NCBI GenBank assembly: GCA_966250335.1
Contig: CBINGZ010000009.1
Span: 54,120 to 118,119 of the forward strand
Length of the DNA: 64,000 nucleotides
Direction: 5' to 3'
Source of the DNA: an uncultured bacterium
GTDB lineage: Bacteria; Bacteroidota; Ignavibacteria; OLB7
The notes under the pieces were generated by a model. It did not search any database and was not told the DNA's origin. It saw only the letters and a program-made list of their open reading frames with translations. The translations under genes were made by a program, and so were the position numbers. How positions within the stretch are numbered: position 1 is the stretch's first letter; every line of letters starts with the position of its first letter. Below are positions 12,380 through 50,963 of the stretch, piece after piece.

Positions 12380-12385
12380 GCCGGG

Positions 12386-12838
12386 TCAGCGGGTCTCGGA
12401 GGTCCTGTCGAATATCAGACGGTCCAGGCTGAAGCGGCCCGGTCCCGTCAGAAGAATGACGCATGCGATCCCCAGATAGAGGAAGGCCAGTTCCTTCTTT
12501 CCGAACGGGTCGGCCGCATGACGGATGAATCCCGCCGTGACCATGGTCAGCGCGATCACGAACGCCGAGGGGCGTGTCGCGAACCCGAGCGCCAGAAAGA
12601 TCCCTCCGACGAACTCCCCGTACGCCGCCGCATACGCGAAGAATCCCGGAGCCGGGAAGCCCATCTCCGCGGCCCGGCCCGTAAGGCCGGTCAGGTCGCC
12701 CGTCACTTTCGAAAGCCCGTGCCCGAACGCCATGAAGAGCCCCGTGACCAGGCGGAGCATCAGGAGTCCGAGGTCGGTCGACCAGGGTCTGACCAGGGCC
12801 CGGTAGAGGCCGTTCATTCTATCGCCGGAACCGTTCAT
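12386..12838 (-). CDS. DoxX family membrane protein
   Basis: DLGLLMLRLVTGLFMAFGHGLSKV...GFPAPGFFAYAAAYGEFVGGIFLALGFATRPSAFVIALTMVTA: the typical DoxX helix pattern. Start is 12838 or 12817. Confidence 0.8.
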   Translation of the reverse strand: MNGSGDRMNGLYRALVRPWSTDLGLLMLRLVTGLFMAFGHGLSKVTGDLTGLTGRAAEMGFPAPGFFAYAAAYGEFVGGIFLALGFATRPSAFVIALTMVTAGFIRHAADPFGKKELAFLYLGIACVILLTGPGRFSLDRLIFDRTSETR

Positions 12839-13049
12839 GTCGTATATCTCGCAGTATATGATGTTCGGAAGAGAGAGGATTATCCAAGGACGGACGATAC
12901 GGAACATGAGTCGGAACATCAACGCATATTCGATTGTTCCGGCGCTTCCTGACGGTAAAGCTCAGGGGGACCGGTCGTGAATAACGATTTGGTGGTATCA
13001 TGCGACATCCGAACGCCTGCGAACACCATGGACGGTTATCGCCGAGAAG

Positions 13050-14324
13050 ATGAATCCCAACTTCGTCAAGCGCACCCTGATGGCGGCTCCCGCCGCCGAA
13101 CTCTTTGCATGGCATGAACGGCCCGGCGCCTTCCTGCGGCTTTCGCCTCCCTGGACCGATCTGGAGGTGATCGACAGCACCGGAGGAATCCGCGACGGCG
13201 ACCTCGTGAATCTTGCCATGCGCATGGGGCCGATCACCCTGCCGTGGAGGATCAGGCATGGAAACTATATCGCAGGGAGGCAGTTCGAGGATCTCCAGGT
13301 CAGAGGTCCGTTCACGCATTGGGTTCACCGGCATCTGGTGGAGCCGGCCGGGGAGAGGAATGCCTGGCTGGAGGATGCGATCGAATACGAGCTTCCTCTG
13401 GGCATTGCGGGACGGGTTGTCGCGGGGAGACCGGTTCGCGCGGAGCTGGAGCGCCTGTTCGAATATCGCCATGCGATCACTTCCGACGATCTTCGGGATC
13501 ACATGCTCTATGCGGACCGGCCGCGACTTCGGGTTCTGATCGTGGGGGAGGGACTACTGGCGAGCGGACTTTCTCCATTCCTGACCACCGGAGGGCATAC
13601 CGTCGTTTCCGTTTCCGCTGCCGATCTGGTCGCGGGGCGGGTGCAGGATCATGCCGTGTTCGATGCGGCGGTATATCCGATCGAGGAGGATATTCTTCAT
13701 CGTGATGCGACTCATGCAGCACAGCGGAACGGACCGGATGCGATCCGTTCGGTAAGCGCCGCTCTCGCCCGGCTCCCCGTGCCTCCACGTCGGGCGGTCA
13801 TCGCGGTTCCTCTGGGGATGATTGCGACTTCCGCCGATCGCGCGGTCGTGGCGGATGCGGTTTCGATTGCAAGGCAGGCAGGCATAAGTGCCGTTATTGC
13901 AGGGACGGCGCCTCTCCTGACGCCGAAGGCCGGGCTGCTGAAAGGGCTGGCCGCGGCCTCCTGGTTCGGGAAGGATCGGGGGCTCGGCGCGCATATCCCC
14001 TGGATATCGTTCGACGATGCGATCGGCCTGCTCCATCACCTCGTCATGAACGGGGATGAGGGAACGGTGAAGATCGCCGCTCCGTCAACCGTCTCGATGT
14101 ACGATCTGATGGAGGCCACCGCGGCCGCGGCGGGAAGGCCGGTCAGGTTCCCTTCGTCGCTTGCGAAGGTGGGAGGGCTCTTCGGGGTTCCCCCGGCCGA
14201 TGAGCTGCGCGGGATCGTCGCCGAAACCTCGGATGCGCCTGATGTCCCCGGCTATCGGTTCCGCCATCCGAAGCCGGCCGGAGCATTGGCGTTCATGTGG
14301 GGACGCGGGAAGAGGGGAAAATAG
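13050..14324 (+). CDS. SRPBCC (cyclase/dehydrase-like) domain fused to YfcH/TIGR01777-like epimerase fold with DUF1731-like C-terminus
   Basis: N-terminal LFAWHERPGAFLRLSPPWTDLEVI...FEDLQVRGPFTHWVHRH is the SRPBCC pattern seen in 'cell division inhibitor'-type fusions. C-terminal ...VPGYRFRHPKPAGALAFMWG resembles the DUF1731 end. The Rossmann glycine motif is degenerate (VLIVGEGLLASG). Confidence 0.6.
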   Translation: MNPNFVKRTLMAAPAAELFAWHERPGAFLRLSPPWTDLEVIDSTGGIRDGDLVNLAMRMGPITLPWRIRHGNYIAGRQFEDLQVRGPFTHWVHRHLVEPAGERNAWLEDAIEYELPLGIAGRVVAGRPVRAELERLFEYRHAITSDDLRDHMLYADRPRLRVLIVGEGLLASGLSPFLTTGGHTVVSVSAADLVAGRVQDHAVFDAAVYPIEEDILHRDATHAAQRNGPDAIRSVSAALARLPVPPRRAVIAVPLGMIATSADRAVVADAVSIARQAGISAVIAGTAPLLTPKAGLLKGLAAASWFGKDRGLGAHIPWISFDDAIGLLHHLVMNGDEGTVKIAAPSTVSMYDLMEATAAAAGRPVRFPSSLAKVGGLFGVPPADELRGIVAETSDAPDVPGYRFRHPKPAGALAFMWGRGKRGK

Positions 14325-28603: not shown

Positions 28604-31504
28604 CTATCGCTGCACGTTCAACCTCTGCGTCAACCATCGTCCGTCGACCCTGATCCGGATCAGATAGGCTCCGTCCGGGAGCCCGGCGACGGGGATCTCG
28701 GCCCGCGTCTCGCCGGCGCTCGTGACCAGGATCCGCCTTGTCAGTTCGCTCCCCGTCATATCGTAGAGCGTGAGTTCGGCCGGCTCTCCGGCGGTTTCGG
28801 AGGTGAAGAGCGCCGTCGCCGACTCTCTCGCCGGGTTCGGGTAGAGCTTCAGAGCGCCGATCGCTCCGGAGCCTTCATCCTTCCCTTCGGACCCTCTTCC
28901 CTCGGCCTTGCGCGAGCCCCCTTTCCCCGGGGCCGCGAGGAACGGGATGTTGCTCGTCTGCGCCAGGATCCAGTACTCCTCGCTCTCGTGATAGATCGTC
29001 GCGGGATCTGTCGACCAGACCTGGATCCAGTAGTCGTAGTTCTTGAAGTCCGCGCCGTTGACCGTCATGACCTTCTCGCCGATCCCCGCCGGCGGCGATC
29101 CCGGGATGGCGGTGACGTTCCCCCCCGACTTGGCCCGGCGATAGAGGGTCAGCCTGTACGGCTTCGAGTGTTCGTAGAGCACCACCTGCAGGTTGGTCGT
29201 CGTCTCCGTATGCTTGATCTGGAGCCAGTCCTCCTTGTCATTCTTGCAGAGCAGTCCGATATAGTATTCGTTGGTCGGAATCCTCCGCGCCTTGTCGAAG
29301 GTGTTGTCCGGTTCGTACGAACCGCAGTCGACCGTGGTGTAGAAGGCGGCGCCGGGGCTCCAGTCGCTGTAGAGGTTGTTCGAATACTTGGAGCGGACGT
29401 AGCAGGCGTACCGCTGATCCGGCTGCAGAAGGGTGAGGATGACCGATGTCCCGTTCACGGTGCGATATGTCCAGGGGCTGAGCGCCGTCCCGTTCTGCGA
29501 GACACGCGCGGAGATCATCTCGTACTGCGTTACACCGGGAACCTGCGTCCAGTTCAGCTTTGCCGTCGTCGGCGTGATCGTCGAAGCCCAGAGCTCTTCG
29601 GGCTCCACCGGGTTCCCCCCGAAGAACTGAACGAGCGCTGTGTAGGCGCTGAAGGTGTTGCCGTTCCGCGCCCTGATCCGCACCTGATAGTTCGCCTGCT
29701 CCAGATTCTCCAGCTTCGCCTCGTTCAGGGTTACCTGACCGATCGTCGTCCAGCTCGCGGCCCCGACCTTTCTGTACTGCACCTCGTAGGCGGTGGCGCC
29801 CGCCGACCTGGTCCACTTCACCACCGCCGTGTTTCCGGCCTGCGGGGTCTCCGATCTCTTGCGTGTGATCCCGGCCGAAGCGACGGTCACGCCGGTCGGA
29901 GGCATGAGATACTGCGACAGACCGTTGATGCAGATCGAATACGCCTGGCTTCCGCCGCGCAGAGTCCCCTTGCCGGTCACCGTGACCTTGTAGATATGCG
30001 CGAAGGTCCCGAGGAACGAAAGATCGGCCGACTTGAAGTAGATCTGCTCGACGTTGTCGACCTTGTTGTCGTCGTGCTTCGCCTCGGCGGTCGGGCTGGC
30101 CGGGTCGAGCGCGTAGGGGAGGATCGGGAGAACGGACTGCATGCCGTTGATGATCGGGTAGAGCTTCAGGTCGAGGTCGTTGACCAGCATCCGCTTCCTG
30201 TCGTTCAGCGGGAGGTAGGTTCCGATCTTGTCGGCGGGTGTTCCCTCGGGGTCGGTCCATGCGATCGTGATCCTGCCGAACTGGTTGGGGTTGCCCCTCA
30301 CATAGAACTCGACAACTTCATTCTGCGATAGAGTATCCTGCCTGACCGAGAACCCGCCGTTGGTCGTGCTCTGCGTGATCAGGTCGACGGCGGCCTTGAC
30401 GTCGACCTGGCCCCAGCCGTAGAGGTAGTCGGGGCCCGGCCTTCCCAGGTCCTTCGCCGTGTGGATCAGCAGGCCGCGCGCCGTGGAGGCGAGCATGTTC
30501 GGGAAGGGGATCTTCTTCTCCCACTGCTGCTTCATCAGCAGAACGGCTCCCGCCACGGCCGGTGTCGCATACGATGTTCCGTCGACGCTGGAGTCGTACT
30601 GCACCATCGAGCTCGGTTTTCCACAGACGGTGACATCGACTCCGAGGGCCACCACATCGGGCTTGATCCGGCCGTCGTCGGTGGGCCCTGTGCTGCTCTG
30701 GGGCCAGAGAAGACCGTTCCTGTCCACCGCCCCGACCACGATGGCGTTCTTGGCGGTCGCCTGCGACACCAGCACGTCGTAGCCCCCCTCGCCGCCGTTC
30801 TTCGGGTGGAGCGTGCTGCTCCTCACGAAGGTCCCGTCCGATTTCGCCGCGTCGTACTCGGTGCCGGGGGAGGGGGCGAGCCAGCGCTGGTTGCCGGCGG
30901 CCACCACCGGTATCTGGGTGCGATATTTGAAGATCACCGAGTCGAGCTTTTTGGCCCATGTATCGTAGTAGCCGAACGCCCGCTCCTCCGACCCTGCGAC
31001 GTTCAGCTCGTTGAGTCCTTCAAGCGTTCCGGTCCACTGCCACTGGGTGGGGCCGACCTGGCGCCACCCCCGGTTGATGCCGTAGGAGTGACAGCTCACA
31101 TCCCATTCCCATCCCCCCACCTGATCCAGAAACATCTGGATCGAGCCGTCGACGATGAACATATCGCCACGCGATGCGCGAGCGATCCCCCGCGCCCTCG
31201 GGTGCTTCCCCTGCGCCAGGATCAGCCCGGTGACCTGGGTGGGGTGGAGCCCCGTGATGCCGATCGTCGGGGCGGCGTAGACGAAAAGATTCGTGACCCC
31301 CTTGAACTCCGGATGGGTCTTGGTGGGGGAGCGCTGGAACTCGAAGATGCCGACCCGCTGTCCCTCGCCGTTGAGCTTGTACGGGGCGTTCCAGAGCGTG
31401 TGGGCGTTGATCGCCGTCGCATGGTCCGCCGGCTGCGCGGCGGCCTGAAGCGCCGCGAGAGCGCAGAGGCAGAACGTTGAAACGATCCTGTTGTATGCGT
31501 TCAT
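28604..31504 (-). CDS. Secreted subtilisin-like (S8) peptidase with FN3-like modules and T9SS C-terminal sorting domain
   Basis: Signal peptide. S8 motifs GLHPTQVTG (His), VVAAGNQ (oxyanion Asn), DGTSYATPAVAGAVLLM (Ser). Mid-protein FN3-like modules (TAYEVQYRKVGAASWT..., TQYEMISARV...). C-terminal LKLYPNPARESATALF...LTLYDMTGSEL...GAYLIRIRVDGRWLTQRLNVQR is a T9SS CTD. Confidence 0.85.
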   Translation of the reverse strand: MNAYNRIVSTFCLCALAALQAAAQPADHATAINAHTLWNAPYKLNGEGQRVGIFEFQRSPTKTHPEFKGVTNLFVYAAPTIGITGLHPTQVTGLILAQGKHPRARGIARASRGDMFIVDGSIQMFLDQVGGWEWDVSCHSYGINRGWRQVGPTQWQWTGTLEGLNELNVAGSEERAFGYYDTWAKKLDSVIFKYRTQIPVVAAGNQRWLAPSPGTEYDAAKSDGTFVRSSTLHPKNGGEGGYDVLVSQATAKNAIVVGAVDRNGLLWPQSSTGPTDDGRIKPDVVALGVDVTVCGKPSSMVQYDSSVDGTSYATPAVAGAVLLMKQQWEKKIPFPNMLASTARGLLIHTAKDLGRPGPDYLYGWGQVDVKAAVDLITQSTTNGGFSVRQDTLSQNEVVEFYVRGNPNQFGRITIAWTDPEGTPADKIGTYLPLNDRKRMLVNDLDLKLYPIINGMQSVLPILPYALDPASPTAEAKHDDNKVDNVEQIYFKSADLSFLGTFAHIYKVTVTGKGTLRGGSQAYSICINGLSQYLMPPTGVTVASAGITRKRSETPQAGNTAVVKWTRSAGATAYEVQYRKVGAASWTTIGQVTLNEAKLENLEQANYQVRIRARNGNTFSAYTALVQFFGGNPVEPEELWASTITPTTAKLNWTQVPGVTQYEMISARVSQNGTALSPWTYRTVNGTSVILTLLQPDQRYACYVRSKYSNNLYSDWSPGAAFYTTVDCGSYEPDNTFDKARRIPTNEYYIGLLCKNDKEDWLQIKHTETTTNLQVVLYEHSKPYRLTLYRRAKSGGNVTAIPGSPPAGIGEKVMTVNGADFKNYDYWIQVWSTDPATIYHESEEYWILAQTSNIPFLAAPGKGGSRKAEGRGSEGKDEGSGAIGALKLYPNPARESATALFTSETAGEPAELTLYDMTGSELTRRILVTSAGETRAEIPVAGLPDGAYLIRIRVDGRWLTQRLNVQR

Positions 31505-31549
31505 GATATCCGGTATGATATTGTTTGATGGATCGCTGCGCGATGAATG

Positions 31550-33349
31550 TTATCTGATGACGGTGATCATCTTCGTGGTGCTGAGGGTTCCGGTCGTGAT
31601 CCGGCAGCAGTAGATCCCGGCGGCCACGCCGTTCAGGGGGATCGTCAGTCCGGTCGAACCGGCGCTCCGGCCGGTGAAGGTTCCTCCGGTCACGCGGTTC
31701 CCGGCCAGGTCGTAGAGCTCGATCAGCACCTCGGCCGACTCGCCGCAGTGGACCTGCACCGTCATATCGTATGCCGCCGGAATCGGATAGATCTTCGCCG
31801 CCGGCGGCGCCGCCGGAGCCTCCGTCTCCACGTCCGACGTCCCCGCCTCCGTGGTGAAGCTCCAGACGTCCGACCAGGCGCTCGGCCCGCTCTCGTTCAG
31901 CGCCCGCACCCGCCAGCGGTAGGTCGTTCCCTTCTCCAGATCGGCGGCGACGGCCGTCGGCTCCAGCGCGGCAAGCCGGGTCGATTCCTCCCCGAAGCTC
32001 TCATCGGGAGATATTTCGACGATGTAGGAGGTGGCGTTCTTCGCCCTCTCCCAGACCAGCTCCGTCGGGAGCGTCGCGTCGCCGGAGGCATCGGCCGGGG
32101 AGATCAGGAGCGGCTTCGACGGAGTCTCCGCCTGCGCCGTCTTCGTGCTGAAGCTGAAGGGACGCGACCAGGCGCTCTCGCCGACGCCGTTCTCCGCGCG
32201 GACCCGCCAGTGATAGGTCGAATCGAGGGTCAGTCCGGAGATCTCGTAGGAGGCGGTCGTCGTCCTCCCGCCGCCGGTCAGGAGGGCGAACTCCGGGTCG
32301 TGGGAGAGCTGGAGGGTGTAGCCCGTCGCGTCGGGGATGCTGTCCCAGGAGAGCATCACCGTTTCCGGGATGTAGGTCGCCCCGTTCGCCGGCAGCAGAA
32401 GCTGCGGCGCGACCGGGCCGGAGGGCTTCGGCGGGGCTGTCGAGAAGCTGAACTCCTTTGTCCACTCGCTTCTGCTCTCGTCGCCGGAGCTTCGCACGCG
32501 CCAGAAGTAGGTCTCTCCCGGCGTGAGGTTCACCGCGTCGAACGCCGTCGAGTCGAGATCGGCCGCCGCGGCCACGAGCTCGGTGAAGTCGTTCGTTCGC
32601 GCGACCTCGACGTCGTACCGGACCTTCATGGCGGCCGTTCCGCTCCAGATCAGCGCCACGTCGCCGGGGAGCGAGGCGGCGCCGTCGGCGGGGGAGATGA
32701 GAACCGGAGTCGGGAGGGGCGCGGGGGCCGGCCATGCCGTCGTGAAGGTGAACCAGCGCGACCAGACGCCGGGGGCGGCCGCGCCGACCAGCCGGGCCCG
32801 CCAGAAGTACTGCGTCCCCTGCTTCAGCCCGGTCAGGAGCTTCTCAGGCATGGTGGTCTGCGCCCGTTCGGAAGGTCTGAACTCCCCGTTCTCCGCCCAT
32901 TCCACCTCATAATCTCCCGCCCCCGCGATCGCCGTCCATTCCAGCTTCACGGCTCCCTCCATGTCGGTCGTCCCGTCCGCCGGGAGAAGGAGCTGGGGGA
33001 TGCCGGTCGAGGGGCGGGTCGTAAAGGTGTTGACCGCCGACCAGGGGGTGGGATTTCCGAGAGGATCGAGACCCCTGACCCGCCAGTGGTAGCTCTTCTG
33101 GAAGAGGAGATTCGTGAAGCCGGCGGTCGACTCGCCGACCGTCGCCTCTTCGTACTCGGTGAAGTCGTCGGTCATGGAGAGATGGACCTCGTAGGCGCTC
33201 GCCGTTGAAAGGGGGCGCCAGGAGAGGGTGACGTCGATCGGCTGATCGGTCGCTCCGTTCGGGGGAGCGTTCGGGACCGGCTGTGCCGCCAGGCTGCCCG
33301 CCACCAGCAGCGCCAGCCCTGCAATCGTGAGGATGTTCCTGTTCGTCAT
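31550..33349 (-). CDS. Secreted protein of five tandem FN3-like modules plus T9SS C-terminal sorting domain
   Basis: Signal peptide MTNRNILTIAGLALLVAGSLAAQ, then five ~95-aa modules sharing P-x-(D/N)G...L-x-W...Y-(E/D)-V...T-Y-(H/F)-W-R-V-R...W-S...F-(S/T)-F-(S/T)-T. The CTD is KIYPIPAAYDMTVQV...LYDLAGNRV...GIYCCRITTGTLSTTKMITVIR. Confidence 0.85.
   Translation of the reverse strand: MTNRNILTIAGLALLVAGSLAAQPVPNAPPNGATDQPIDVTLSWRPLSTASAYEVHLSMTDDFTEYEEATVGESTAGFTNLLFQKSYHWRVRGLDPLGNPTPWSAVNTFTTRPSTGIPQLLLPADGTTDMEGAVKLEWTAIAGAGDYEVEWAENGEFRPSERAQTTMPEKLLTGLKQGTQYFWRARLVGAAAPGVWSRWFTFTTAWPAPAPLPTPVLISPADGAASLPGDVALIWSGTAAMKVRYDVEVARTNDFTELVAAAADLDSTAFDAVNLTPGETYFWRVRSSGDESRSEWTKEFSFSTAPPKPSGPVAPQLLLPANGATYIPETVMLSWDSIPDATGYTLQLSHDPEFALLTGGGRTTTASYEISGLTLDSTYHWRVRAENGVGESAWSRPFSFSTKTAQAETPSKPLLISPADASGDATLPTELVWERAKNATSYIVEISPDESFGEESTRLAALEPTAVAADLEKGTTYRWRVRALNESGPSAWSDVWSFTTEAGTSDVETEAPAAPPAAKIYPIPAAYDMTVQVHCGESAEVLIELYDLAGNRVTGGTFTGRSAGSTGLTIPLNGVAAGIYCCRITTGTLSTTKMITVIR
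31850..33280 (-). repeat. Five tandem ~285-bp coding repeats (FN3-like modules); boundaries approximate
   Basis: Protein-level periodicity as listed for CDS 31550-33349. The modules are diverged at nucleotide level. Confidence 0.6.
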
Positions 33350-33421: not shown

Positions 33422-33664
33422 TTATCCGCTCCCGTTCCGGGGGATCTGCGAGCCGGGCGTGCGGGGCGATCCAAGGGAGGCGCCGCACCTGGAGCAGAAG
33501 AAGGCGATGGCGTGGCGGATCATCTCTCCGCAGGTTCCGCAGCGGCGCACCAGCGGCGAGCCGCAGTTGGGGCAGAATCTATCCTCGTCGTAGCCGGCGG
33601 TCCGGCAGAGAGGACAGTGGGGGACTGTCCCGAGGTACGGGGGGGCTGTCAGCGGAGTGTTCAT
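33422..33664 (-). CDS. Double zinc-ribbon mini-protein (80 aa)
   Basis: MNTPLTAPPYLGTVPHCPLCRTAGYDEDRFCPNCGSPLVRRCGTCGEMIRHAIAFFCSRCGASL has four CxxC pairs. Only the last 80 codons of track ORF 33422-34630 are credible, because the remainder is antisense to the regulator gene. Confidence 0.6.
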   Translation of the reverse strand: MNTPLTAPPYLGTVPHCPLCRTAGYDEDRFCPNCGSPLVRRCGTCGEMIRHAIAFFCSRCGASLGSPRTPGSQIPRNGSG

Positions 33665-33827
33665 GGTTCGACGCCGGTCCTTGTTTTCGCCTGCCGCGCT
33701 ATCTTGTCCGCGGCTGTCATCGTTCTTCAAGGTATTCCCGACCGGGGACAAAAGCCGGCGACGGCGGGGACAGTTCGTCGAAATCGCGCGGAGAACCGAC
33801 TTCGCCCCCTTTTTTCTCCTCAAGCTC

Positions 33828-36800
33828 ATGTCGTCCACACCTCTTTTCATCGAGTTCCTGAACCACGGGACCCTTCCGTTCGTGGGGCGCAGGGCCGAGC
33901 GCGACAGGATCGTCGCCTTCTGGCGGGGAGCGCCGGAATCGCACGGGCTGCGCGCGTTCCTGGTGATCGGCGAGGCGGGGTCGGGGAAGAGCAGGCTTCT
34001 GGATGAGACCTTCCCGGCGGTCATGGCCGCCGGCGGCGCGGTGGTGCATGTCAGGCTTCGTCCGGAGGGAGCGGTCTCGATCGCCCCTCTTCTGGCGCAG
34101 GGACTCTGGCGCTCGGAGATCGGCAGGCAGATCCTCCGGCAGCCCCCCGACGAAAGCCTTCCGGCGGTCATCGCCCTCCTCAGAAGGCTCTGCGGCCTGC
34201 GGCGCGTGCTCCTGGTGATCGAGGATATCCATCTGCTGGAAGGGGCGACGCTCCGCGAGTTCGCTCTTCTCGTCGAGGCACTTGCCGATGAACATCTGGC
34301 GCTTCTTGCCGCCGCCCGTCCCGTGGAGATCGCGGCGCGGGGGACGCTGGAGAGCCGTCCGACCGAGGAGATGCGGCTGGGGACATTGACCGGGGAGGAG
34401 ATCGGCGAGATGTGGAGCGGTATCTTCGGCGGCGTTCCGGAACCGGCCATCGTCACGGCTCTGCTGGACGCCACGCGCGGGAACGCTCTGGCGCTCCGTT
34501 CGGTCCTCCGGGGCGCCATCAACGCGGGGGCGATCGGTCCGGAACGTGACGGCGGGTGGCGGGTGCAGGTCTCCCGGGGGGCCTTCGCCGAGCTTGCGGG
34601 GCGGAACGCCCGGCAGCTCACGCTCGGCATGACGAGTCATCTTGGAGATGAGGAACGGAGGGTCGCGGCCCTTCTCTCGGCGCTCGGGGAGGTCTTCTCG
34701 CGCGAGGCGGCGGCGAAACTGATCCCGGACGGGGAGGAAGCTCTTCTCGATTCGCTCCTCTTCCGCGGCGTGCTGGTCCGCTCGACGACGGCGGCCAGCT
34801 CGATCAACGGCGCGCGGAGCGACGGGATGCTTCTCGCCTTCACCCATTCCCTTCTCCATAAAACCTTCGCCGAATCGACCGACCACGACGTCGACCGGCT
34901 GGTCCGGACCGTGCTGTCGCGCGCCCCCCTCTATTCGGTGCTGCCGTTCCAGATCATCGCGGGGTCGGCGGGAGCCTTCACCGGCACGCAGGAGGAGATC
35001 GGGGACGCCATCCAGCTCGCCTACGAGATCACGCGCCACCTGAGCCCCACCCCCGACTGGCAGCTCGTGCGGGAGGCATGGCGCGCCGCCGAACGTCTCA
35101 CCGCGATACATGCCGGAAGATCCGATCCCGCCGCCGTCCGTGAGTACAGCATCCGGCTCATCCATCTCGAGATCTACCTGATCAACAGGGGGCGGAACTT
35201 CGATCCCCTCTCGATCAAGACGATCAAGGAGGCGGCCGGACGACTGATGGAGCTGACCGAGGAGCCGCTGCCGGAGCATCTTCGCCCCGGCCGACTCCAT
35301 GCCCTCGCCTACGCCTACGACATTCATGTCGATGAAACCCAGAAGCCGAGCCCCGAGATCTGGGATCGGGCCGAGGCGCTCCTCGAGCTCGATCCGTCGC
35401 TGATCGTCACCGCCGGCTATCTCAACTTCCTCAGCTTCACGGCGAACGTGACCGAACTGATTCGCAAGGAGGATCACTTCGGGATACTTCGGCAGGTCGA
35501 ATCGCGTTACGAGATGCTGATCGCATGGCCCGACGCGGGCCCGGCCGTCATCCACGAGGCCAGAACCAAGATCGGCTCCCATCTGCTGCAGCTTTATGAA
35601 TCGGAGGAGGAGGTGCTCCGGAGGAAGCGGGAGGCCGTCGCCCTGCTGGAGATCGCCGCCCCCTTCGACTGGCTGGCGCAGTTCAGGGTGATCGAACTGC
35701 ATGTCCATACGCTCGACATCCCCTTCGTCGACCCGATCGTCGACGCCGCCGCCGAGGCGATGCGGAAGCTCGGGGTGATGACCACCTATTTCATCACCCG
35801 TCGCGTCCGGATGGTGCTGGACGGCGCCCGGGGAGAACCGTGGCGGGAGATCGCCGCCGCCGCGCGCGCCCTGGTCGAGACCTGCGTCTACTCCTTCAAG
35901 CCGAGCTTCACGGTCGGCCTGACCGCCGAACTGCTGACGGCCGCGCTCCTCCGGAACGAGATGGAGTGGGTCGACGCGATCATGGAGGAGTATGAGGCGA
36001 GCATCGCCAATCCGATGTTTCCCTTCTGCGAGCTGCTTCTGGCGGCGATCGTCCGGGACCGGCTCCCGTGGGCGTGCGGGATCGTGGTCCGTCACCATGC
36101 GTCGCCGACCGACTGGCTCTACCGCTCGGGACGGAACGACGATCTGGTGGTGCGGATGGCTCTTGCCGCGACCGGCGGGTCGGACCCCGATGGGGCAGAG
36201 GCCGCGATCGCCGATGCGCTCGTCGTGCTCCGGAAGCCGATTCTCAACTACTACGATATTCTTACCGCCCGATGCCTGATCGGGCTCGTTGAATCTATCT
36301 GGAAACGATATCCCGATTCGATCTCCCGGGAATCTCGCGAAACGATCGGATCGTGCGTGGAGGCGATCGTGCTCTGGCTCCATGAGCGAAGGATCGGAGC
36401 GTATATGATCCCGACCCTCGATCTCTGCGGCCGATATCTTCCCCCCGAACAGCTCGAGATATGGCGCGGGCTCGCGAAGGATCTGGAAGGAGCCTGGAGC
36501 GTGACGAACGACGAGCCGGAGCTGAAGGGGGAGAGCCGTCTGACGGTGACGATGCTCGGGGCGATTCAGACGATCCGGCCGGGAGAGGAGCCGCAACGCC
36601 TGCGGGGGGCGCGTCATCAGGCGCTGCTCGGGTTGCTGGTGGCGCAGGCGCTCCTGAAGAAGAAGCTCCAGCGCGCCGAGTTCCTGGCCCTCGCCTCGGG
36701 TGAGATCGATGATCCGGAGAAGGCGCGGCAGTGGACGAACAAGGCGGTGCTCCGGCTTCGCGAGGCGATCGGCAACGAGGCGATCGTCACCGGAGGGGAG

Positions 36801-37208
36801 ACGCCCGGGCTGAACCTTGAACTGGTGACCGTCGATCTGATCGAGGCCGAGTCGCTGCTTGTGAGCGCGGAGCTGGCCCTGCGCGAACGGAATCTCTCCA
36901 GGGGGCGCGAGGCGCTTCTCGCCATGCTCGCCGTCACCCGCGGCGAGGTTCCCTATCCGGGGCTCTACGACAGATTCTTCGAGTCGGCGCGGGAGGAGTT
37001 CGAAAGCCGTTCCAGAAGGGCGATCGTGGAGGCTGCGCGTCGTCTTCTCGCCGAGGAGGATCATGCCGGCGCCGAGGAGCTGCTCGGGGCCGCCTTCGGC
37101 TGGATGAAGGAGGATGAGGAGATCGCCGAGCTTCTCGAGGAGACGCTCCGTGCCGCCGGCAAGGCGACCGAGGCGGTTCGCGTCCGGATGGCGGGGGCGA
37201 CGGCGTGA
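33828..37208 (+). CDS. Large P-loop NTPase (AAA_16/STAND-like) - helical region - C-terminal SARP (winged helix + BTAD) regulator, copy 1
   Basis: Walker A GEAGSGKSRLL and Walker B RRVLLVIEDIHLLE. About 750 aa follow with no catalytic motifs. C-terminal LTVTMLGAIQTIRPGEEPQRLRGARHQALLGLLV...VLRLREAIG...LVTVDL (OmpR/SARP wHTH), then ...AMLAVTRGEVPYPGLYDRFFESAREEFE...EEIAELLEETLRAAGKATEAVRV (BTAD-like). ATG 33828 chosen (MSSTPLFIEFLNHGTLPFVGR). Confidence 0.8.
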   Translation: MSSTPLFIEFLNHGTLPFVGRRAERDRIVAFWRGAPESHGLRAFLVIGEAGSGKSRLLDETFPAVMAAGGAVVHVRLRPEGAVSIAPLLAQGLWRSEIGRQILRQPPDESLPAVIALLRRLCGLRRVLLVIEDIHLLEGATLREFALLVEALADEHLALLAAARPVEIAARGTLESRPTEEMRLGTLTGEEIGEMWSGIFGGVPEPAIVTALLDATRGNALALRSVLRGAINAGAIGPERDGGWRVQVSRGAFAELAGRNARQLTLGMTSHLGDEERRVAALLSALGEVFSREAAAKLIPDGEEALLDSLLFRGVLVRSTTAASSINGARSDGMLLAFTHSLLHKTFAESTDHDVDRLVRTVLSRAPLYSVLPFQIIAGSAGAFTGTQEEIGDAIQLAYEITRHLSPTPDWQLVREAWRAAERLTAIHAGRSDPAAVREYSIRLIHLEIYLINRGRNFDPLSIKTIKEAAGRLMELTEEPLPEHLRPGRLHALAYAYDIHVDETQKPSPEIWDRAEALLELDPSLIVTAGYLNFLSFTANVTELIRKEDHFGILRQVESRYEMLIAWPDAGPAVIHEARTKIGSHLLQLYESEEEVLRRKREAVALLEIAAPFDWLAQFRVIELHVHTLDIPFVDPIVDAAAEAMRKLGVMTTYFITRRVRMVLDGARGEPWREIAAAARALVETCVYSFKPSFTVGLTAELLTAALLRNEMEWVDAIMEEYEASIANPMFPFCELLLAAIVRDRLPWACGIVVRHHASPTDWLYRSGRNDDLVVRMALAATGGSDPDGAEAAIADALVVLRKPILNYYDILTARCLIGLVESIWKRYPDSISRESRETIGSCVEAIVLWLHERRIGAYMIPTLDLCGRYLPPEQLEIWRGLAKDLEGAWSVTNDEPELKGESRLTVTMLGAIQTIRPGEEPQRLRGARHQALLGLLVAQALLKKKLQRAEFLALASGEIDDPEKARQWTNKAVLRLREAIGNEAIVTGGETPGLNLELVTVDLIEAESLLVSAELALRERNLSRGREALLAMLAVTRGEVPYPGLYDRFFESAREEFESRSRRAIVEAARRLLAEEDHAGAEELLGAAFGWMKEDEEIAELLEETLRAAGKATEAVRVRMAGATA

Positions 37209-37269
37209 GATACCTGATCGGATAGCGATGTTCGAACGTGTCGGCCGCCGGGTCCGATACATTTTCCGT

Positions 37270-37288
37270 CGGGGGGATCAGGCCCCCG
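37270..37288 (+). terminator. Weak candidate terminator after regulator copy 1
   Basis: CGGGGG-gatcagg-CCCCCG stem-loop followed by ggaattatttc, 62 nt after the stop at 37208. Confidence 0.35.
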
Positions 37289-37385
37289 GGAATTATTTCA
37301 TGGCTCGGATGTTGTGCAGAAGGATCACCCCGCCGGCCTTCCCGTGAAGGCTTCGCGGCTCTTATCGACAAGCCTTCGATCCTCC

Positions 37386-37967
37386 ATGTTGCTCACCCGG
37401 AATCTCGTTCCCGTTCTTTCGGCGGCACTCCTTCTTCTCTCCGCCTGTTCCGACACCGATACCGACACGGTTCCGCAAACCGATTCGAATATCGTACAGG
37501 GAGATACATCCGCAACCCCGTCCCTCCCGTCGTCCGACTGGACCGTGACGGTCGAGGGGGTCGGCCCCGTCCGGATCGGAATGAGTCTGGCCGAACTGCG
37601 CGGCGCGGTCGAACTCGAGGCGACGGAGATCGATTCCACGGCCTCCTGTTTCCATGTCCGACCCCGCAACGCGCCGGCCGGACTGCTGGTCATGATCTCC
37701 GGCGGCCGGGTCGCGCGGGTCGAGGTGACCGAGGCGGGGATAACGACCGGAGAGGGGGCGGCGGTCGGCGACGAACCGGGCCGGATACGCCAGCTCTACC
37801 CCGGAACGGTGACCGAGCAACCTCACAAGTACACCGACGGGAAGTACCTGATCGTGACCCCGCAGACGCCGGAGCGCCGGATCATTTTCGAGACCGACTC
37901 GACCCGGGTGACCCGTTTCAGGGTCGGGAAGACTCCGGAGGTGGAGTGGGTGGAGGGATGTTCGTAG
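37386..37967 (+). CDS. Hypothetical lipoprotein
   Basis: MLLTRNLVPVLSAALLLLSAC has the lipobox L-S-A-C, followed by an acidic/Thr-rich linker and a ~150-aa domain with no recognised motif. Confidence 0.6.
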   Translation: MLLTRNLVPVLSAALLLLSACSDTDTDTVPQTDSNIVQGDTSATPSLPSSDWTVTVEGVGPVRIGMSLAELRGAVELEATEIDSTASCFHVRPRNAPAGLLVMISGGRVARVEVTEAGITTGEGAAVGDEPGRIRQLYPGTVTEQPHKYTDGKYLIVTPQTPERRIIFETDSTRVTRFRVGKTPEVEWVEGCS

Positions 37968-38614
37968 GAGGGGGGGAGGGGGATTCCGGCGATGTCCGCT
38001 TCCATGGGAGGAAAATTCGTCCGAATTCGCACTTTTTTCTCGAAAAAATCCTCCTCCGATACGTCAAATCCCGTCGAACGCATCGATTTCCGCAGTATCT
38101 TGTTACACGCCGGAACAGGTCGGTTTCCCGGTTTCGACGGCATAGTCGATATCGGAGGATATACATTCCAGCCCATCCTCCCGACCGCCCTGTAACAGTC
38201 GGTACCTCTCACGATGTTGCGGGTCGAACCTCCGGCGGGTTCGATCTGTTGCCCGGGACCTCCTTCGGGGTCGCCTGAAACCGGCGTCCGAGCCGATCGG
38301 GCTCTCCCCGGGCCTTCTTCCTCCACGACTGTGACCGGCCATCCCCGGTGGGACGCACGCCTTTCTCGGGGAACACCAGAGGATCTTCCGAAGAGACGAC
38401 CGTTCACAGCCGACCGAACGTGCAGCGGACCTCCATGCCGTCGTTTCCCGGCGGTAAGTAAATCGACGGACCCCGATCGGCGACGATCACGCAGACCACG
38501 GGTGCGGTGCAGCTCCCGCTTCGGCATCAGGGATGCACACAGGACGCGTGTCTGAACCATACATATCACATCGGGTCGCTCAACCATCCTACAATAAGGC
38601 CTACGGAGAGTGCA

Positions 38615-40843
38615 ATGAACAGAAAGTTCGTCCTTGTGACACTATTTACCCTCATGGCGATGGGGGGAGTCGTAGCACAGGTGCCGCGTCAGATCAGTTA
38701 TCAGGGAATACTGACCGACGCAAACGGTGTCATCGTTCCCGACGGGAACCATGCTCTGGCCCTGAGCCTCTACGACGCGGCAACAGGCGGCACGGCTCTC
38801 TTCTCGGAATCTCATGACGTCGTGGTGAAAAAGGGAGTCTTCAATATCATCATGGGATCGAAGACCCCGCTCCCCCCGACTCTCTCGTTCGATCGCGCAT
38901 ACTTCCTCGGTGTCGCCGTCGACGGCGCCGCCGAGCTCAGCCCGCGCACGGCGCTGACGGCGTCCCCCTACTCGCTCCATGCGACGAGCGCCTCCACGGC
39001 GCAGTTCGCCGACAGCTCGCGCACGGCGGCATCGGCCAACGTTGCCCGCGGCCTTCTTCCCGGCGCCAGCGGCGTCGTGACGTCGCTCAACGGACAGTCG
39101 GGCGCGATCCAGCTCGTCGGCTCAGGCTCCACGACGGTCTCCAGCTCGGGGGGGCAGTTCACGATCTCCTCGACGATGGACAACAGCGGCATCGCCGAAC
39201 TTCGTACGACCAACGGCACGCTGCAGATCACGGACGCCGAGGGACCGCTCACGACGATCAACGTTGCTCCGGGCGGCATCAGCGCGCGTGAGCTGGCCGA
39301 GAATTCGGTCGGAAGCCTGGCGATCACCGACGGCGCCATCACCACCCGCAAGCTCGCCAACGAAGTGTTCGAGGAGCCGAAGATCGCTCCGGGAGCGGTG
39401 ACCGCCAGCAAGCTCGGCCTGAACGCCGTGACGGCGCCCAAGATCGCCGACGGCGCGGTCACGACGGCGAAGCTCGCCGACGCCTCCGTGACGGGAGCCA
39501 AGTTCAACACGACAGGCGCCGTCTCGGGACAGGCCCTGATCTACGACGGGTCGAAGGTCGGTTTCGCGTTCCCCTCGGCAGGCGCTCTTTCGCTGCCGTA
39601 CTCGCAGACCGCTTCCAACCCCAGCCCTCTCTTCTCGATCACGAACAGCGGGGCAGGAGGGGCCGGGAACTTCGCGGTCTCCGGCGCGGGGGGGGGCACG
39701 GCGCTCACCGGCAGCACGGCCGGCAGTGGAACGGCGGTCCTCGGTCTGCAGACCGGCGGCAGCGGTCGCGCCGGCTACTTCCAGTCGACCAGCAGCGCCA
39801 ACAACACGAACACGCTTGAGGCGACGACGGCCGGATCGACCGGCACGGCGATACTCGGCACGGCCACCGGCGGCAACGGCGTCTCCGGTGTCGCCAACAC
39901 CGGCAACGGCGTCAACGCCACAAGCACCAGCGGCAACGGTCTCAACGCCACCAGCACCGGCGGCAGCGCCGTCAACGCCAACAGCACCAACGGCAGCGGC
40001 GTCAACGCCGCGAGCACCAGCGGTCGCGCCGGCGTCTTCACGATCACCAACAGCGGCAACGCGAACGCCGCCCTCGATGCCAGCACGACCGGCACCGGCA
40101 ACGGTATCTCCGGCCTGAGCACCTCCGGTTTCGGTATCGTGGGACGGACGGCGTCGACGGCGCGCGCGGGAACGGTCGGAACGATGCAGACCACGTTCAA
40201 CTACCTCTCGAACAGCGGCGTCGCCGGCTACAGCCCGAACTCGTACGGAGTCAGCGGTGTGTCGGAAACCGGCCTGGCCGTGCTGGGATACGCGAACGGA
40301 GCAGGAGCCGTGGCCGGTTACTTCTTCGGCAACGTGACGGTAACGTCGAACGCGACGATCACCGGAACGCTCGCCAAGGGCGCCGGAACGTTCAAGATCG
40401 ACCATCCGCTCGATCCGGCGAACAAGTTCCTCTATCACTCGTTCGTCGAGTCGCCCGACATGATGAACATCTACAACGGCAACGCGATCCTGGACGGCTC
40501 CGGAAGCGCCGAGGTGACGATGCCGGAGTGGTTCTCGGTCCTGAACATGGAGTTCCGGTATCAGCTCACGGCTGTCGGAGCTCCGGGTCCGAACCTTCAT
40601 GTCGCCGAGAAGATCAACGGCAACCGTTTCCGTATCGCCGGCGGCGCGCCGGGAATGGAAGTCTCGTGGCAGGTGACCGGCATCCGCCAGGATCCGTACG
40701 CCAAGGCTCATCGTGTCCAGGTGGAAGTGCAGAAGTCGGATAAGGAGCGCGGCCGCTACCTGCATCCGGACCTCTACAACCAGCCGCGTGAGAACGCGAT
40801 CTACTACATACCGCCTCCCGTCTCCGGCCAGGCCGGAAACTAG
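38615..40843 (+). CDS. Secreted tail-fibre-like repeat protein with conserved C-terminal domain
   Basis: GGAGAG Shine-Dalgarno, then ATG 38615. Signal peptide MNRKFVLVTLFTLMAMGGVVAQ. N-domain ISYQGILTDANGVIVPDGNHALALSLYDAATGGTALFSESHDVVVKKGVFNIIMG, of the type that opens many Bacteroidota 'tail fiber domain' proteins. ~11-aa repeats (AVTAPKIADGAVTTAKLADASVTGAKF). Gly/Ser/Thr/Asn-rich repeats. C-terminal KIDHPLDPANKFLYHSFVESPDMMNIYNG... domain. Confidence 0.8.
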   Translation: MNRKFVLVTLFTLMAMGGVVAQVPRQISYQGILTDANGVIVPDGNHALALSLYDAATGGTALFSESHDVVVKKGVFNIIMGSKTPLPPTLSFDRAYFLGVAVDGAAELSPRTALTASPYSLHATSASTAQFADSSRTAASANVARGLLPGASGVVTSLNGQSGAIQLVGSGSTTVSSSGGQFTISSTMDNSGIAELRTTNGTLQITDAEGPLTTINVAPGGISARELAENSVGSLAITDGAITTRKLANEVFEEPKIAPGAVTASKLGLNAVTAPKIADGAVTTAKLADASVTGAKFNTTGAVSGQALIYDGSKVGFAFPSAGALSLPYSQTASNPSPLFSITNSGAGGAGNFAVSGAGGGTALTGSTAGSGTAVLGLQTGGSGRAGYFQSTSSANNTNTLEATTAGSTGTAILGTATGGNGVSGVANTGNGVNATSTSGNGLNATSTGGSAVNANSTNGSGVNAASTSGRAGVFTITNSGNANAALDASTTGTGNGISGLSTSGFGIVGRTASTARAGTVGTMQTTFNYLSNSGVAGYSPNSYGVSGVSETGLAVLGYANGAGAVAGYFFGNVTVTSNATITGTLAKGAGTFKIDHPLDPANKFLYHSFVESPDMMNIYNGNAILDGSGSAEVTMPEWFSVLNMEFRYQLTAVGAPGPNLHVAEKINGNRFRIAGGAPGMEVSWQVTGIRQDPYAKAHRVQVEVQKSDKERGRYLHPDLYNQPRENAIYYIPPPVSGQAGN
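39872..40021 (+). repeat. Five tandem 30-bp (decapeptide) repeats in the tail-fibre-like gene
   Basis: GNGVSGVANT / GNGVNATSTS / GNGLNATSTG / GSAVNANSTN / GSGVNAASTS. The nucleotide units ggcaacggcgtcaacgcca... are clearly reiterated. Confidence 0.85.
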
Positions 40844-49307: not shown

Positions 49308-50963
49308 TTAGTTGTCGGTGAAGAACTGGTTGAGAATCCAGCCCGATTCGTTCAGCTTCGGTCCGGATGTGACGAGCACCTTCATCCAGCTCTGCCCCTT
49401 CCGGATGATCGTCACCTTGGTATCCTTGGAGAGGGTCTTCTTGCCGGCGGGAGCGGCCGGGTCATCCTCGAAAAAGACCCCGTCCTTGTTGACGATGCCG
49501 TTCAGCGTCTCCGGATGCTGCACCACCATCGTCGTGAACTTGTCGTCGACGGCGTTGACGTTGGAGCTTGCCTCCGCCCACGACTGCTTCTTGCTCTCCG
49601 GGCCGTACATATCGAAGTAGTAGGGGACGCCGGAGCTGTCGTAATCCTCCAGTGTGATATAATCGTGACCGGAGGCCATGATGTTGAACCCGAAGTGGAA
49701 GTTGTATCCCGTCTCGGAGGCGCCCGGCATATCGCGCTCGCTGCCGATCGTGACCCCCTGGCCCACTTTCGGCACCGCGTACTTGTTGATGCCGTACTTC
49801 TCGCTCAACCTCTTCTGCTCGTCCGAGCTCAGTTTATCCCATTCCTTCAGCGCCTCCAGCCGGGTCAGCTTCTTGCCGAACTCGCGATCGAAGATCCGGA
49901 TGTAGATCTCGCCCGACATCTTCTCGGTGGTGGAGACGATCCCCCCGGCCGAGTTGTCGTCGGCGATGTAGGCCGACGGGCCGGTAAACTCCTCGGTCGT
50001 CCCGCGCCTGGTGACGGCGGTGAACGATTCGTAGCCTGCCTTTTCCGATCCGAGGATCTGCTGGCATGCCGTGCCGCAGTCGTCGACAAGGCTCGCCTCC
50101 CCTCCGCCGGCACGGTCGATCACCTTGAACTGCTTGAGCTTCAGCGTCGTCTTGGCCTTGCCGGGGGGAGAGGTCGTTATGTCGCCTCCCGATACCTCCT
50201 GCAGTTTCACCTTCGATTTGATATCGTCCAGCACCTTGTTCGAGCTCGCGATGTTGGCCGATTCGGCCCACGCCTTCCGTTTGTGGTCGAGCACCGCCAT
50301 CTTTCCGTCGTCGGCGAGACGGTCGTAGGGGAGGCCGGTGACCTCCGTGTACTTCTGCACCGGCGCGCCGGTCGATCCGTTCCCGAATCCGCCGAAGCGT
50401 GGGGCGGGGGAGGGAAGAAGATCGGCTGCCGATTCTCCTCTGACGACCCGGTCGGCTACCTCGTCCGCGTTCCGTTCGTAGGTGTCTCCCTTCCGGCCGA
50501 TGCCGTCACCCAGGCGCACGCCGTGCTGCTGCTGGATGATATGGGCCGCCTCGTGCGCGGCAATCCGGAGGCTCGGTGTTCCGCCGAACGCGATATTCTT
50601 CCCCGTGGCGTAGGCTGCGGCTCCCATCCCCCGGGCCGAGCGTGCGGCCTCGGCCCCCGTATGGGCTCTCACGTCGTTCAGCCGGTGCCCCGTGCCGAAG
50701 GAGCGTCCGATCCTCTCCAGATAGGGGAGGGGGCCTCCGGCGCCCGAAGTGCCGCGCCGTGCCAGTCCGTGGGTCTCCTGCGGATGGAGCTCCGGCGACA
50801 TCGGTATCGTGCTGACGTCGTGAGGGTTGGAGTGGGTCGCGCCGGGCGCGGATGCTTCCCGGGCCGTGAAGGGTCGGCTCAACATATCGGAATGAGAAGG
50901 GGCTTGCTGCGTGGCGATGATCCTTCCCGTCTCCCGACTCGGCTTCCGTGCAAACGTACGCAT
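49308..50963 (-). CDS. DUF4157-headed polymorphic-toxin-like protein with C-terminal SH3b-like domain
   Basis: N-terminal LPYLERIGRSFGTGHRLNDVRAHTGAEAARSARGMGAAAYATGKNIAFGG...LRIAAHEAAHIIQQQ...GDTYERNADEVADRVV is the DUF4157 pattern (HExxH-like AHEAAH). The middle ~300 aa is unassigned (contains DDCGTACQ ... ASGHDYITLEDYD). The end TKVTIIRKGQSWMKVLVTSGPKLNESGWILNQFF is SH3b-like. ATG 50963 (MRTFARKPS...). Confidence 0.75.
   Translation of the reverse strand: MRTFARKPSRETGRIIATQQAPSHSDMLSRPFTAREASAPGATHSNPHDVSTIPMSPELHPQETHGLARRGTSGAGGPLPYLERIGRSFGTGHRLNDVRAHTGAEAARSARGMGAAAYATGKNIAFGGTPSLRIAAHEAAHIIQQQHGVRLGDGIGRKGDTYERNADEVADRVVRGESAADLLPSPAPRFGGFGNGSTGAPVQKYTEVTGLPYDRLADDGKMAVLDHKRKAWAESANIASSNKVLDDIKSKVKLQEVSGGDITTSPPGKAKTTLKLKQFKVIDRAGGGEASLVDDCGTACQQILGSEKAGYESFTAVTRRGTTEEFTGPSAYIADDNSAGGIVSTTEKMSGEIYIRIFDREFGKKLTRLEALKEWDKLSSDEQKRLSEKYGINKYAVPKVGQGVTIGSERDMPGASETGYNFHFGFNIMASGHDYITLEDYDSSGVPYYFDMYGPESKKQSWAEASSNVNAVDDKFTTMVVQHPETLNGIVNKDGVFFEDDPAAPAGKKTLSKDTKVTIIRKGQSWMKVLVTSGPKLNESGWILNQFFTDN

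Follow-up and report, generated by a model that had tools for sequence, protein, structure and literature searches.

In MalT and the LAL regulators, the ATPase comes first and a LuxR domain forms the C-terminal end. The described classes of SARP (Streptomyces antibiotic regulatory protein), namely the small, medium (SARP-NB-ARC), large (SARP-NB-ARC-TPR), and SARP-LAL proteins, all carry the SARP module at the N-terminus, and SARPs are treated essentially as actinomycete regulators (PMC10972967, PMC12224297, bioRxiv 10.64898/2026.09.02.748808). The protein analyzed here is encoded by a 64,000-nucleotide stretch of DNA from an uncultured bacterium of the Bacteroidota (GenBank assembly GCA_966250335.1, contig CBINGZ010000009.1, positions 54,120 to 118,119), referred to below as the window, in which positions 33828-37208 (+) form an uninterrupted open reading frame (ORF) that translates into 1126 amino acids plus a stop. 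This gene product is most likely a STAND transcription activator with a SARP-family output module at its C-terminus, as judged from sequence profiles and structural models. Its architecture is the parts list of AfsR or a SARP-LAL arranged in MalT order. An earlier reading of the locus from its letters alone (the sequence-only reading) had described AfsR parts in MalT order, outside the described SARP classes; that description was accurate, since described SARPs are N-terminal and MalT/LAL regulators end in LuxR, and a literature search found no such arrangement, no C-terminal SARP, and no SARPs in Bacteroidetes. Two further features are new here: about half of the genes of this family are paired with a small double-zinc-ribbon (DZR) gene, and the paired loci carry paralog-specific direct repeats spaced by 22 bp.

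The ATG at 33828 agrees with the N-termini of more than 50 full-length homologs (consensus MMxxLxDFLNHGxLPFVGR), and the strings quoted in the sequence-only reading (GEAGSGKSRLL, LLVIEDIHLLE, LTVTMLGAIQTIRPGEEPQRLRGARHQALLGLLV, LRLREAIG, VTVDL, VPYPGLYDRFFESAREEFE, and LLEETLRAAGKATEAVRV) are all present in the translation. A Pfam scan of the whole protein placed AAA_16 on residues 17-158 (E=2.3e-11; 44.9 bits as compared to a cutoff of 32.6), in keeping with the N-terminal AAA_16/STAND-like ATPase proposed earlier, and returned no other significant match. The sole NCBIfam match, TOMM_kin_cyc (a kinase/cyclase fusion), covers the NTPase part only and lies far under the model cutoff. Both P-loop motifs are intact, with a Walker A of the form GxxxxGK[ST] (GEAGSGKS, K54) and a Walker B of the form hhhh[DE][DE] (LLVIED, E132 and D133), and R164-P165 is sensor-1-like. 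G51, G53, K54, E132, D133, and R164-P165 are invariant in a family alignment of 53 homologs, on which all statements of invariance are based. An AlphaFold2 model of the full-length protein (alignment A1, 53 sequences; predicted local distance difference test score (pLDDT) 89.2, predicted template-modeling score (pTM) 0.67) subdivides the core into a nucleotide-binding domain of alternating strands and helices (residues 1-185), a helical domain (189-232), and a winged-helix domain (236-350), which is the three-part core of STAND NTPases of the MalT/AAA_16 clade. The helical domain carries GNALAL (family consensus GNPLAL), and the winged-helix domain carries FTHSLLH (family FTHxLLH), in which H340 and H344 are invariant. 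When the full-length model was compared to the PDB with Foldseek, the first rank was taken by the STAND protein PH0952, which has a TPR sensor (6mfv, E=1.5e-9), followed by MalT (8bob, 2.6e-7), CED-4, ORC/Cdc6, and plant NLRs; the AfsR SARP was also matched locally.

The sequence-only reading had the ATPase followed by some 750 residues of motif-less, helical sequence. The helical character was borne out, but the lack of motifs was not, since about 180 of these residues belong to the STAND core with its GNPLAL and FTHxLLH motifs. Structure prediction and Foldseek, the route suggested for this region, resolved the remaining ~530 residues into sensor repeats: about 28 helices are modeled over residues 372-893, and they match TPR-type superhelices and the TPR sensor of PH0952, so that a repeat-type sensor follows the core as in other STAND proteins. 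No Pfam repeat model matches the sensor region of the window protein. With a mean pairwise column identity of 0.23, as compared to 0.40-0.50 in the core and 0.47-0.48 in the SARP module, the sensor is the fastest-diverging part of the protein; the short linker that follows it (residues 894-902) has a column identity of 0.09 and a pLDDT below 50. The earlier proposal of a nucleotide-switch activator with a sensing middle region agrees with the predicted MalT/PH0952-like fold and with the fast-diverging sensor, and by analogy the core may undergo an ADP/ATP switch and multimerize.

A profile built from 40 family C-termini (alignment A2, query residues 898-1126) matched the AfsR SARP (8hvr_I) at E=1.3e-6, and the match is collinear over the winged helix and BTAD (profile positions 3-223 to chain residues 40-256). 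The full-length family profile recovered AfsR at E=0.0088, and a phmmer search of the protein itself against PDB sequences found nothing. In an AlphaFold2 model of residues 898-1126 (A2; pLDDT 95.5, pTM 0.90), an N-terminal sheet is followed by three helices, a wing hairpin, and a helical bundle. Foldseek against the PDB returned six hits for this model at E<1e-3, all AfsR or EmbR with template-modeling (TM) scores of 0.63-0.66: the AfsR structures 8k60 and 8hvr at E-values of 6.5e-8 to 4.4e-7 (TM 0.63-0.66) and the EmbR structures 2fez and 2ff4 at 1e-5 to 7e-5 (TM about 0.64). The next matches were generic TPR proteins at E>0.02. Pfam BTAD (PF03704) was detected in 32 of the 40 relatives at E<=1 (best 1.3e-8), and the relatives, the collinearity with AfsR, and the fold all place BTAD directly after the DNA-binding domain, as is expected of a SARP. 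The predicted recognition helix, which reads ...ARQWTNKAVLRLREAIG, retains the OmpR-type RLR motif; R967 is invariant, and R976, L977, R978, and E979 are nearly so. Taken at the level of fold and profile, the assignment of the C-terminus as a SARP module (winged helix plus BTAD), as first proposed in the sequence-only reading, is sound, and it is based on the AfsR profile match, the model, the Foldseek hits, and BTAD in the relatives. The module occupies residues 903-1126 of 1126, not the N-terminal position of known SARPs, and no GerE/LuxR match was found in the protein by Pfam, so that it lacks the C-terminal LuxR domain of LAL and MalT regulators. Since it departs from SARPs in position and lineage and from LAL regulators in its DNA-binding domain, the regulator is filed under neither group; most likely it functions like both.

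A homolog search covering 5.8 billion proteins yielded more than 120 full-length relatives of about 1100 amino acids with 31-40% identity, a few of which carry precomputed BTAD matches. An exhaustive HMMER search with the SARP profile against 1.84 billion representatives of 50% identity clusters returned 4137 proteins at E<=1e-3, of which 406 reached E<=1e-10 and 338 reached E<=1e-30; the two stricter counts stand apart from the far larger set of weak matches, which indicates a discrete family. The SARP match reaches the protein C-terminus in 150 of the 150 best hits listed. Full-length members span 1075-1238 amino acids, and shorter ones resemble fragments at contig ends. Judged from these matches, the architecture is a family trait of at least 338 clusters at 50% identity and is not peculiar to the window gene. 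The source labels are Candidatus Kapabacteria, Chlorobi/Chlorobiota, Bacteroidota, and a few metagenome-assembled genomes of Armatimonadota, with Kapaibacterium placed within Bacteroidota; the actinobacterial host and secondary-metabolite cluster that are typical of SARPs were not found. A contig scan with the full-length alignment, in which generic AAA_16 patterns dominate, gave at least four true family loci and does not amount to a taxonomic census. The family is sizeable, and our literature search found no study of it.

Comparison with the closest described regulators places the protein between them. It shares with MalT and PH0952-type STANDs the order of AAA_16/MalT core, helical-repeat sensor, and C-terminal DNA-binding output, but the output is an OmpR-type winged helix-turn-helix plus BTAD in place of a LuxR/GerE helix-turn-helix, and the putative operator consists of direct repeats at 22 bp in place of MalT boxes. 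With AfsR and the large SARPs it has in common a SARP effector, homologous to that of AfsR, a STAND ATPase, and a helical-repeat sensor, together with, as proposed below, direct repeats ending about 8 nt from a -10-like box and an adjacent small gene (afsS in the one case, the DZR gene in the other). Unlike in AfsR, the SARP is last rather than first, the ATPase is of the AAA_16/MalT clade rather than NB-ARC, and the host is a Kapaibacteria-like member of Bacteroidota rather than of Actinomycetota, with no biosynthetic gene cluster in the surroundings. The SARP-LALs PimR, SanG, and FilR also combine a SARP with an AAA_16/guanylate-cyclase-LAL-type ATPase and a helical region (PMC10972967, PMC12224297), but theirs is N-terminal, as in a circular permutation of the parts, and they are actinobacterial and cluster-situated. 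EmbR of Mycobacterium tuberculosis (SARP plus FHA) has the same winged helix-turn-helix plus BTAD fold (2fez, 2ff4); unlike the window protein, it has no ATPase and is controlled by Ser/Thr-kinase phosphorylation via its FHA domain.

Divergently upstream of the regulator gene lies a small gene whose 80-amino-acid product matches Pfam DZR (E=4.8e-10; 39.9 bits as compared to a cutoff of 27.3). A divergent small DZR gene recurs in the loci L089 (two of three paralogs), L010, L005/L006, L097, L098 (twice), L096, and L105, and among the about 24 family genes whose upstream sequence could be read, about 11 have one. The 163-bp divergent intergenic region of the window (33665-33827) holds CGGGGACA twice, at 33743 and 33765, 22 bp apart, and 8 nt separate the proximal 8-mer from a TACCTTG box. 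Similar direct repeats spaced by 21-22 bp are present in the first four other DZR loci, and a scan of spacings 4-60 peaked at 21 and 22. A test set was then formed by five DZR regions from newly fetched metagenome loci that had not been used to form the spacing hypothesis. The summed best 10-nt self-match in these regions was 45 at spacing 22, as compared to a mean of 31.5 (standard deviation 2.4) over spacings 4-60 and a score of 36 at the next best spacing, and the observed value was reached by 0 of 2000 shuffles in the new, old, or combined locus set. The 22-bp repeat feature is statistically robust at DZR loci. In contrast, the 400 nt upstream of 11 family genes without DZR show no spacing-22 signal (72 versus a mean of 73), which indicates that the repeats go with the DZR gene and not with the regulator gene per se.

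Read toward the DZR gene, the two repeats are separated by 12 nt, and a TAnnTTG box follows the second one after 6-11 nt. In five loci (the window, L010, L098a, L098b, and L096) the box is an exact TAnnTTG, and 54-110 nt separate it from the DZR ATG downstream. The repeats keep a constrained distance from the DZR ATG but lie anywhere between 43 and 495 nt from that of the regulator (55 nt in the window). The box resembles both the sigma-A -7 element of Bacteroidota (and Chlorobi), TAnnTTTG, and its variant TAnnTTGY (PMC9723704), and a scan for canonical sigma-70 promoters found no sites in either flank. The direct repeats bound by SARPs have 4-15 nt between them, which gives 11- to 22-bp units, and overlap with the -35 region (PMC10972967); for AfsR, 8 nt lie between the repeats and the -10 element downstream (PMC11301090). 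Compared by sequence and by analogy, the repeats and box match the geometry of a classical SARP operator, to which the SARP module would be expected to bind. The repeat itself differs between paralogs, being TGTCCCCG in the window, AACTGCAATC-like in L097, L010, and L089a, ATTACGACC-like (ACGACC-type) in L098a and L005, ATCGTAAGAC in L098b, and CTCGTTAT in L105. No locus set showed enrichment of the classical SARP spacing of 10-11 bp. A run of 6-8 T (toward DZR) was observed 10-20 nt upstream of the distal repeat in L098a, L098b, L105, L010, and L089a and is absent from the window's own intergenic region; such a run might act like an UP element or belong to the divergent promoter of the regulator gene.

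The reading we favor, with a rough probability of 0.65, is that of a signal-gated activator, in which a MalT-type STAND ATPase with a C-terminal SARP acts on the DZR gene through the 22-bp-spaced repeats. The sequence comparisons and models show which domains are present and in what order, that the NTPase motifs are intact, that the C-terminus has a SARP fold, and that the DZR pairing and the repeat-box geometry are conserved; binding to the repeats, activation rather than repression, the ATP-dependent switch and multimerization, and the signal are what we infer. At rest, the core (residues 1-365) would be ADP-bound and held closed by contacts with the sensor (residues 366-893). Binding of a ligand or protein at the sensor would allow exchange of ADP for ATP and multimerization, and the multimer would gather the C-terminal SARP modules on their flexible linkers. 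Two modules could then bind the two TGTCCCCG repeats on the same face of the DNA in the 163-bp intergenic region, and BTAD would recruit RNA polymerase at the TACCTTG box, turning on the divergent 80-amino-acid DZR gene and perhaps, in this genome, the two type IX secretion system (T9SS) cargo genes that follow it. The change from an ADP-closed to an ATP-open, multimeric form described for such STANDs (PMC6468293, PMC4381067) is the likely working model for this protein. AfsR activates the small gene afsS (bioRxiv 10.64898/2026.09.02.748808), and the parallel between AfsR-afsS and the regulator-DZR pair is an analogy, not evidence.

Several observations weigh against this reading or parts of it. 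The Pfam models Trans_reg_C and BTAD matched neither the whole protein nor its isolated C-terminal pieces, and Trans_reg_C matched none of the 40 relatives when their C-termini were scanned singly. This is the outcome that the sequence-only reading had named as fatal to its SARP assignment; of the Pfam domains it expected, AAA_16 was found and Trans_reg_C and BTAD were not. As the profile and structure searches were positive, the absent Pfam matches were not taken as a refutation, and the window protein is too diverged for the Pfam models of SARP domains. The JGI pipeline already calls several members "DNA-binding SARP family transcriptional activator". About half of the family, including the window paralog described below, has neither a DZR neighbor nor upstream 22-bp repeats, so that DZR is not a universal target and the members without it must act on other targets. 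At the operator, the copies are 22 bp apart, as compared to the adjacent 11-bp units of the AfsR site, and the window repeat is an exact pair of 8-mers only. Matches to CGGGGACA in the whole window number 5, with 4.35 expected, and no second 22-bp pair occurs there, so that a regulon-wide motif was rejected. TAnnTTG is one T shorter than the Bacteroidota consensus, which may itself not be that of this lineage. Finally, L005 and L098a, which have the same repeat type, also have a common recognition-helix motif (RKALN[DE]AVYRLRE), a match that fits cognate recognition but may reflect close relatedness alone.

Family genes often occur as paralogs in tandem. Locus L089 has three in a row (6268-9585, 10281-13589, and 16727 onward) and L088 has two, L096 and L098 share a contig with three family genes, and one soil contig holds three. 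The tandem arrays run head-to-tail, with small DZR genes interleaved on the opposite strand and each cassette having its own repeat sequence. A tentative extension of the signal-gated activator, which we consider possible but doubtful, takes STAND-SARP/DZR pairs as self-contained, insulated sensory cassettes that have multiplied and diversified in Bacteroidota of the Kapaibacteria type; as many as three stand in tandem, and sensor, operator, and DZR gene would be particular to each. The DZR protein would then be more than the output, since it would also associate physically with the ATPase or the sensor, as a co-sensor or in a feedback loop. The system would be convergent with AfsR/AfsS but have its domains in the opposite order. 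As a domain, DZR is promiscuous. In proteins from other phyla (L074, L066, L051, L060, L085, and L049), which surfaced by chance in the generic contig scan, an N-terminal DZR precedes an adenylate/guanylate cyclase-like region and AAA_16. Such fusions of DZR to related ATPases hint that DZR and the AAA_16 clade may cooperate, although a partnership of this kind is only a lead.

The best-surviving alternative, itself unlikely, accepts the STAND-SARP factor but takes the 22-bp repeats as the operator of the DZR protein or of some other regulator, with the true regulon elsewhere, for example among T9SS-secreted proteins or distant genes. It would account for the half of the family that has neither DZR nor repeats, T9SS cargo adjoins three of the family genes inspected (the window gene, the window paralog, and P0037), and the link between the SARP domain and the repeats is one that we infer. 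However, the repeats are confined to loci that pair a family gene with a DZR gene, their sequence varies by paralog as would be expected for a cognate, paralog-specific binder, and direct repeats on one face of the DNA about 8 nt from a -10-like box are a SARP signature. T9SS cargo is abundant in these genomes, its adjacency is likely coincidental, and the other loci have no conserved neighbor of this kind.

Less probable still is that the protein binds the repeats as a repressor or as a pure autoregulator of the divergent promoter pair. The repeats do lie between divergent genes, at the 55 nt from the window regulator's ATG given above, and a site at about -21 to -50 could occlude RNA polymerase. 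Against repression, BTAD is conserved, and it is through this domain that AfsR engages RNA polymerase in activation (PMC11301090). At the DZR promoters no -33/-35-like element stood out, though no systematic search was made, and this suggests that they depend on an activator. General autoregulation is made unlikely by the family genes without DZR, which have no repeats, and by the unconstrained distance from the repeats to the regulator start.

That the protein is no transcription factor at all is very improbable. In that case it would be an NLR-like STAND, for example a scaffold or an Avs-like antiphage sensor, whose C-terminal winged helix-turn-helix and BTAD mediate protein interactions or act like a TPR, and the tandem, fast-diverging arrays would stem from an arms race. 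This would suit the tandem paralogs, the fast-diverging sensor, the TPR-like structure of BTAD (TPR_19 matches in 34 of 40 relatives), and the undetected Trans_reg_C, but PADLOC gave no hits with its defense models on the regulator, the window paralog, or the DZR protein, and Pfam found no nuclease, protease, or other killing domain and no enzymatic effector domain. The fold of the entire winged helix-turn-helix plus BTAD unit can be superposed on those of AfsR and EmbR, the family conserves an RLR-type recognition helix, and an operator-like DNA feature adjoins the gene.

If the signal-gated activator is correct, signal-dependent gene activation would for the first time become accessible in bacteria of the Kapaibacteria type, a group known chiefly through metagenomes. 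SARPs are regarded as actinobacterial regulators of antibiotic clusters with an N-terminal effector. Here a SARP module sits at the opposite end of a MalT-type switch, in a phylum other than Actinomycetota and in a sizeable family, and the output module thus appears portable between STAND scaffolds. A concrete predicted operator, promoter, and target gene leave the family open to direct testing, and the paralog-specific repeats may provide a natural set of orthogonal regulator/operator pairs. The features of the locus, together with the promoter-like boxes of the other DZR loci, are collected in Table 1.

Table 1. Features of the STAND-SARP locus in window coordinates, and promoter-like boxes at other DZR loci
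Feature	Position	Strand	Basis	Sequence
STAND-SARP regulator gene, 1126 aa	33828..37208	+	ORF, homologs, full-length model	
Nucleotide-binding domain, aa 1-185	33828..34382	+	Pfam AAA_16, invariant residues, model, Foldseek	
Helical and winged-helix domains of STAND core, aa 186-365	34383..34922	+	Conservation, secondary structure, Foldseek	
All-helical repeat sensor (predicted), aa 366-893	34923..36506	+	Model helices, Foldseek, low column identity	
Flexible linker, aa 894-902	36507..36533	+	pLDDT <50, column identity 0.09	
OmpR/SARP-type winged-helix DNA-binding domain (predicted), aa 903-1002	36534..36833	+	AfsR profile match, Foldseek, conserved residues	
BTAD-like helical bundle, aa 1003-1126	36834..37205	+	Collinearity with AfsR BTAD, Foldseek, Pfam in relatives	
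Double-zinc-ribbon (DZR) gene, 80 aa, divergent; proposed direct target, possible partner	33422..33664	-	Pfam DZR	
DZR-proximal direct repeat	33743..33750	-	Repeat search	CGGGGACA on +, TGTCCCCG toward DZR
Distal direct repeat, identical 8-mer, 22 bp from proximal	33765..33772	-	Repeat search	CGGGGACA on +, TGTCCCCG toward DZR
-7/-10-like box facing DZR, 63 nt upstream of DZR ATG (33734-33728 as read on the minus strand)	33728..33734	-	Box comparison across loci	TACCTTG
Box in L010				TACCTTG
Box in L098b				TACCTTG
Box in L098a				TACATTG
Box in L096				TATATTG
Box in L097				TACATTA
Terminator-like hairpin, 60 nt past stop	37269..37289	+	7-bp stem, 6 GC pairs; consensus scan	
Second full-length paralog, 1111 aa, 30% identity	56692..60027	-	tblastn, translation, BLASTP E=7e-95	

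Genes for T9SS cargo, for arginine biosynthesis, and for the cell wall surround the regulator in the window. Downstream of the DZR gene and on the same strand lie a T9SS fn3 protein (599 amino acids) and a T9SS S8 peptidase (966 amino acids; 28604-33349 (-) for the two), whose sorting by the T9SS is indicated by Por_Secre_tail matches, in line with the earlier statement that the genome encodes T9SS cargo. The gaps between the DZR gene and these genes are 72 and 45 nt, with no terminator-like site between, which suggests that the three may be co-transcribed. This arrangement is not conserved at other loci: no conserved neighbor other than DZR was found, contexts vary between the inspected loci, and the ORF lists of L097 and L105 show nothing clearly conserved downstream of DZR.

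On the other side of the regulator gene, the sequence-only reading had taken 37209-38614 as intergenic, which does not hold, as gene callers place two overlapping ORFs there, one of 193 amino acids (37386-37967 (+)) and one of 254 (37823-38587 (-)). Neither has a Pfam match, and at least one of the two calls is doubtful; the 193-amino-acid ORF starts with a lipoprotein-like signal (MLLTRNLVPVLSAALLLLSACS). A 742-amino-acid ORF follows (38615-40843), also without a Pfam match. From about 41698 onward (+) come argC, argJ, argB, an ornithine carbamoyltransferase gene (OTCace), argR, and argG, an arginine biosynthesis operon that looks unrelated to the regulator. The hairpin past the regulator stop is within chance expectation (0.4 per region) and is weak evidence that the gene is monocistronic. 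Just 5' of the regulator ATG, a weak terminator-like hairpin at 33788-33805 (+) is followed by CCCCTTTTTT; it, too, is within chance expectation (0.6 per region).

The window paralog lies 20 kb from the regulator, and its gene call carries AAA_16 plus a faint BTAD match. No DZR ORF and no 22-bp repeats are present in the ~600-bp gap upstream of it. Further upstream on the same strand are a 160-amino-acid ORF and a 587-amino-acid T9SS protein (60627-62390 and about 62387-62872). A few genes from the paralog, at about 49308-50963 (-), a 551-amino-acid protein with an eCIS_core Pfam match is encoded, and near it are a TonB-dependent receptor and a 2',5'-RNA-ligase/NUDIX fusion.

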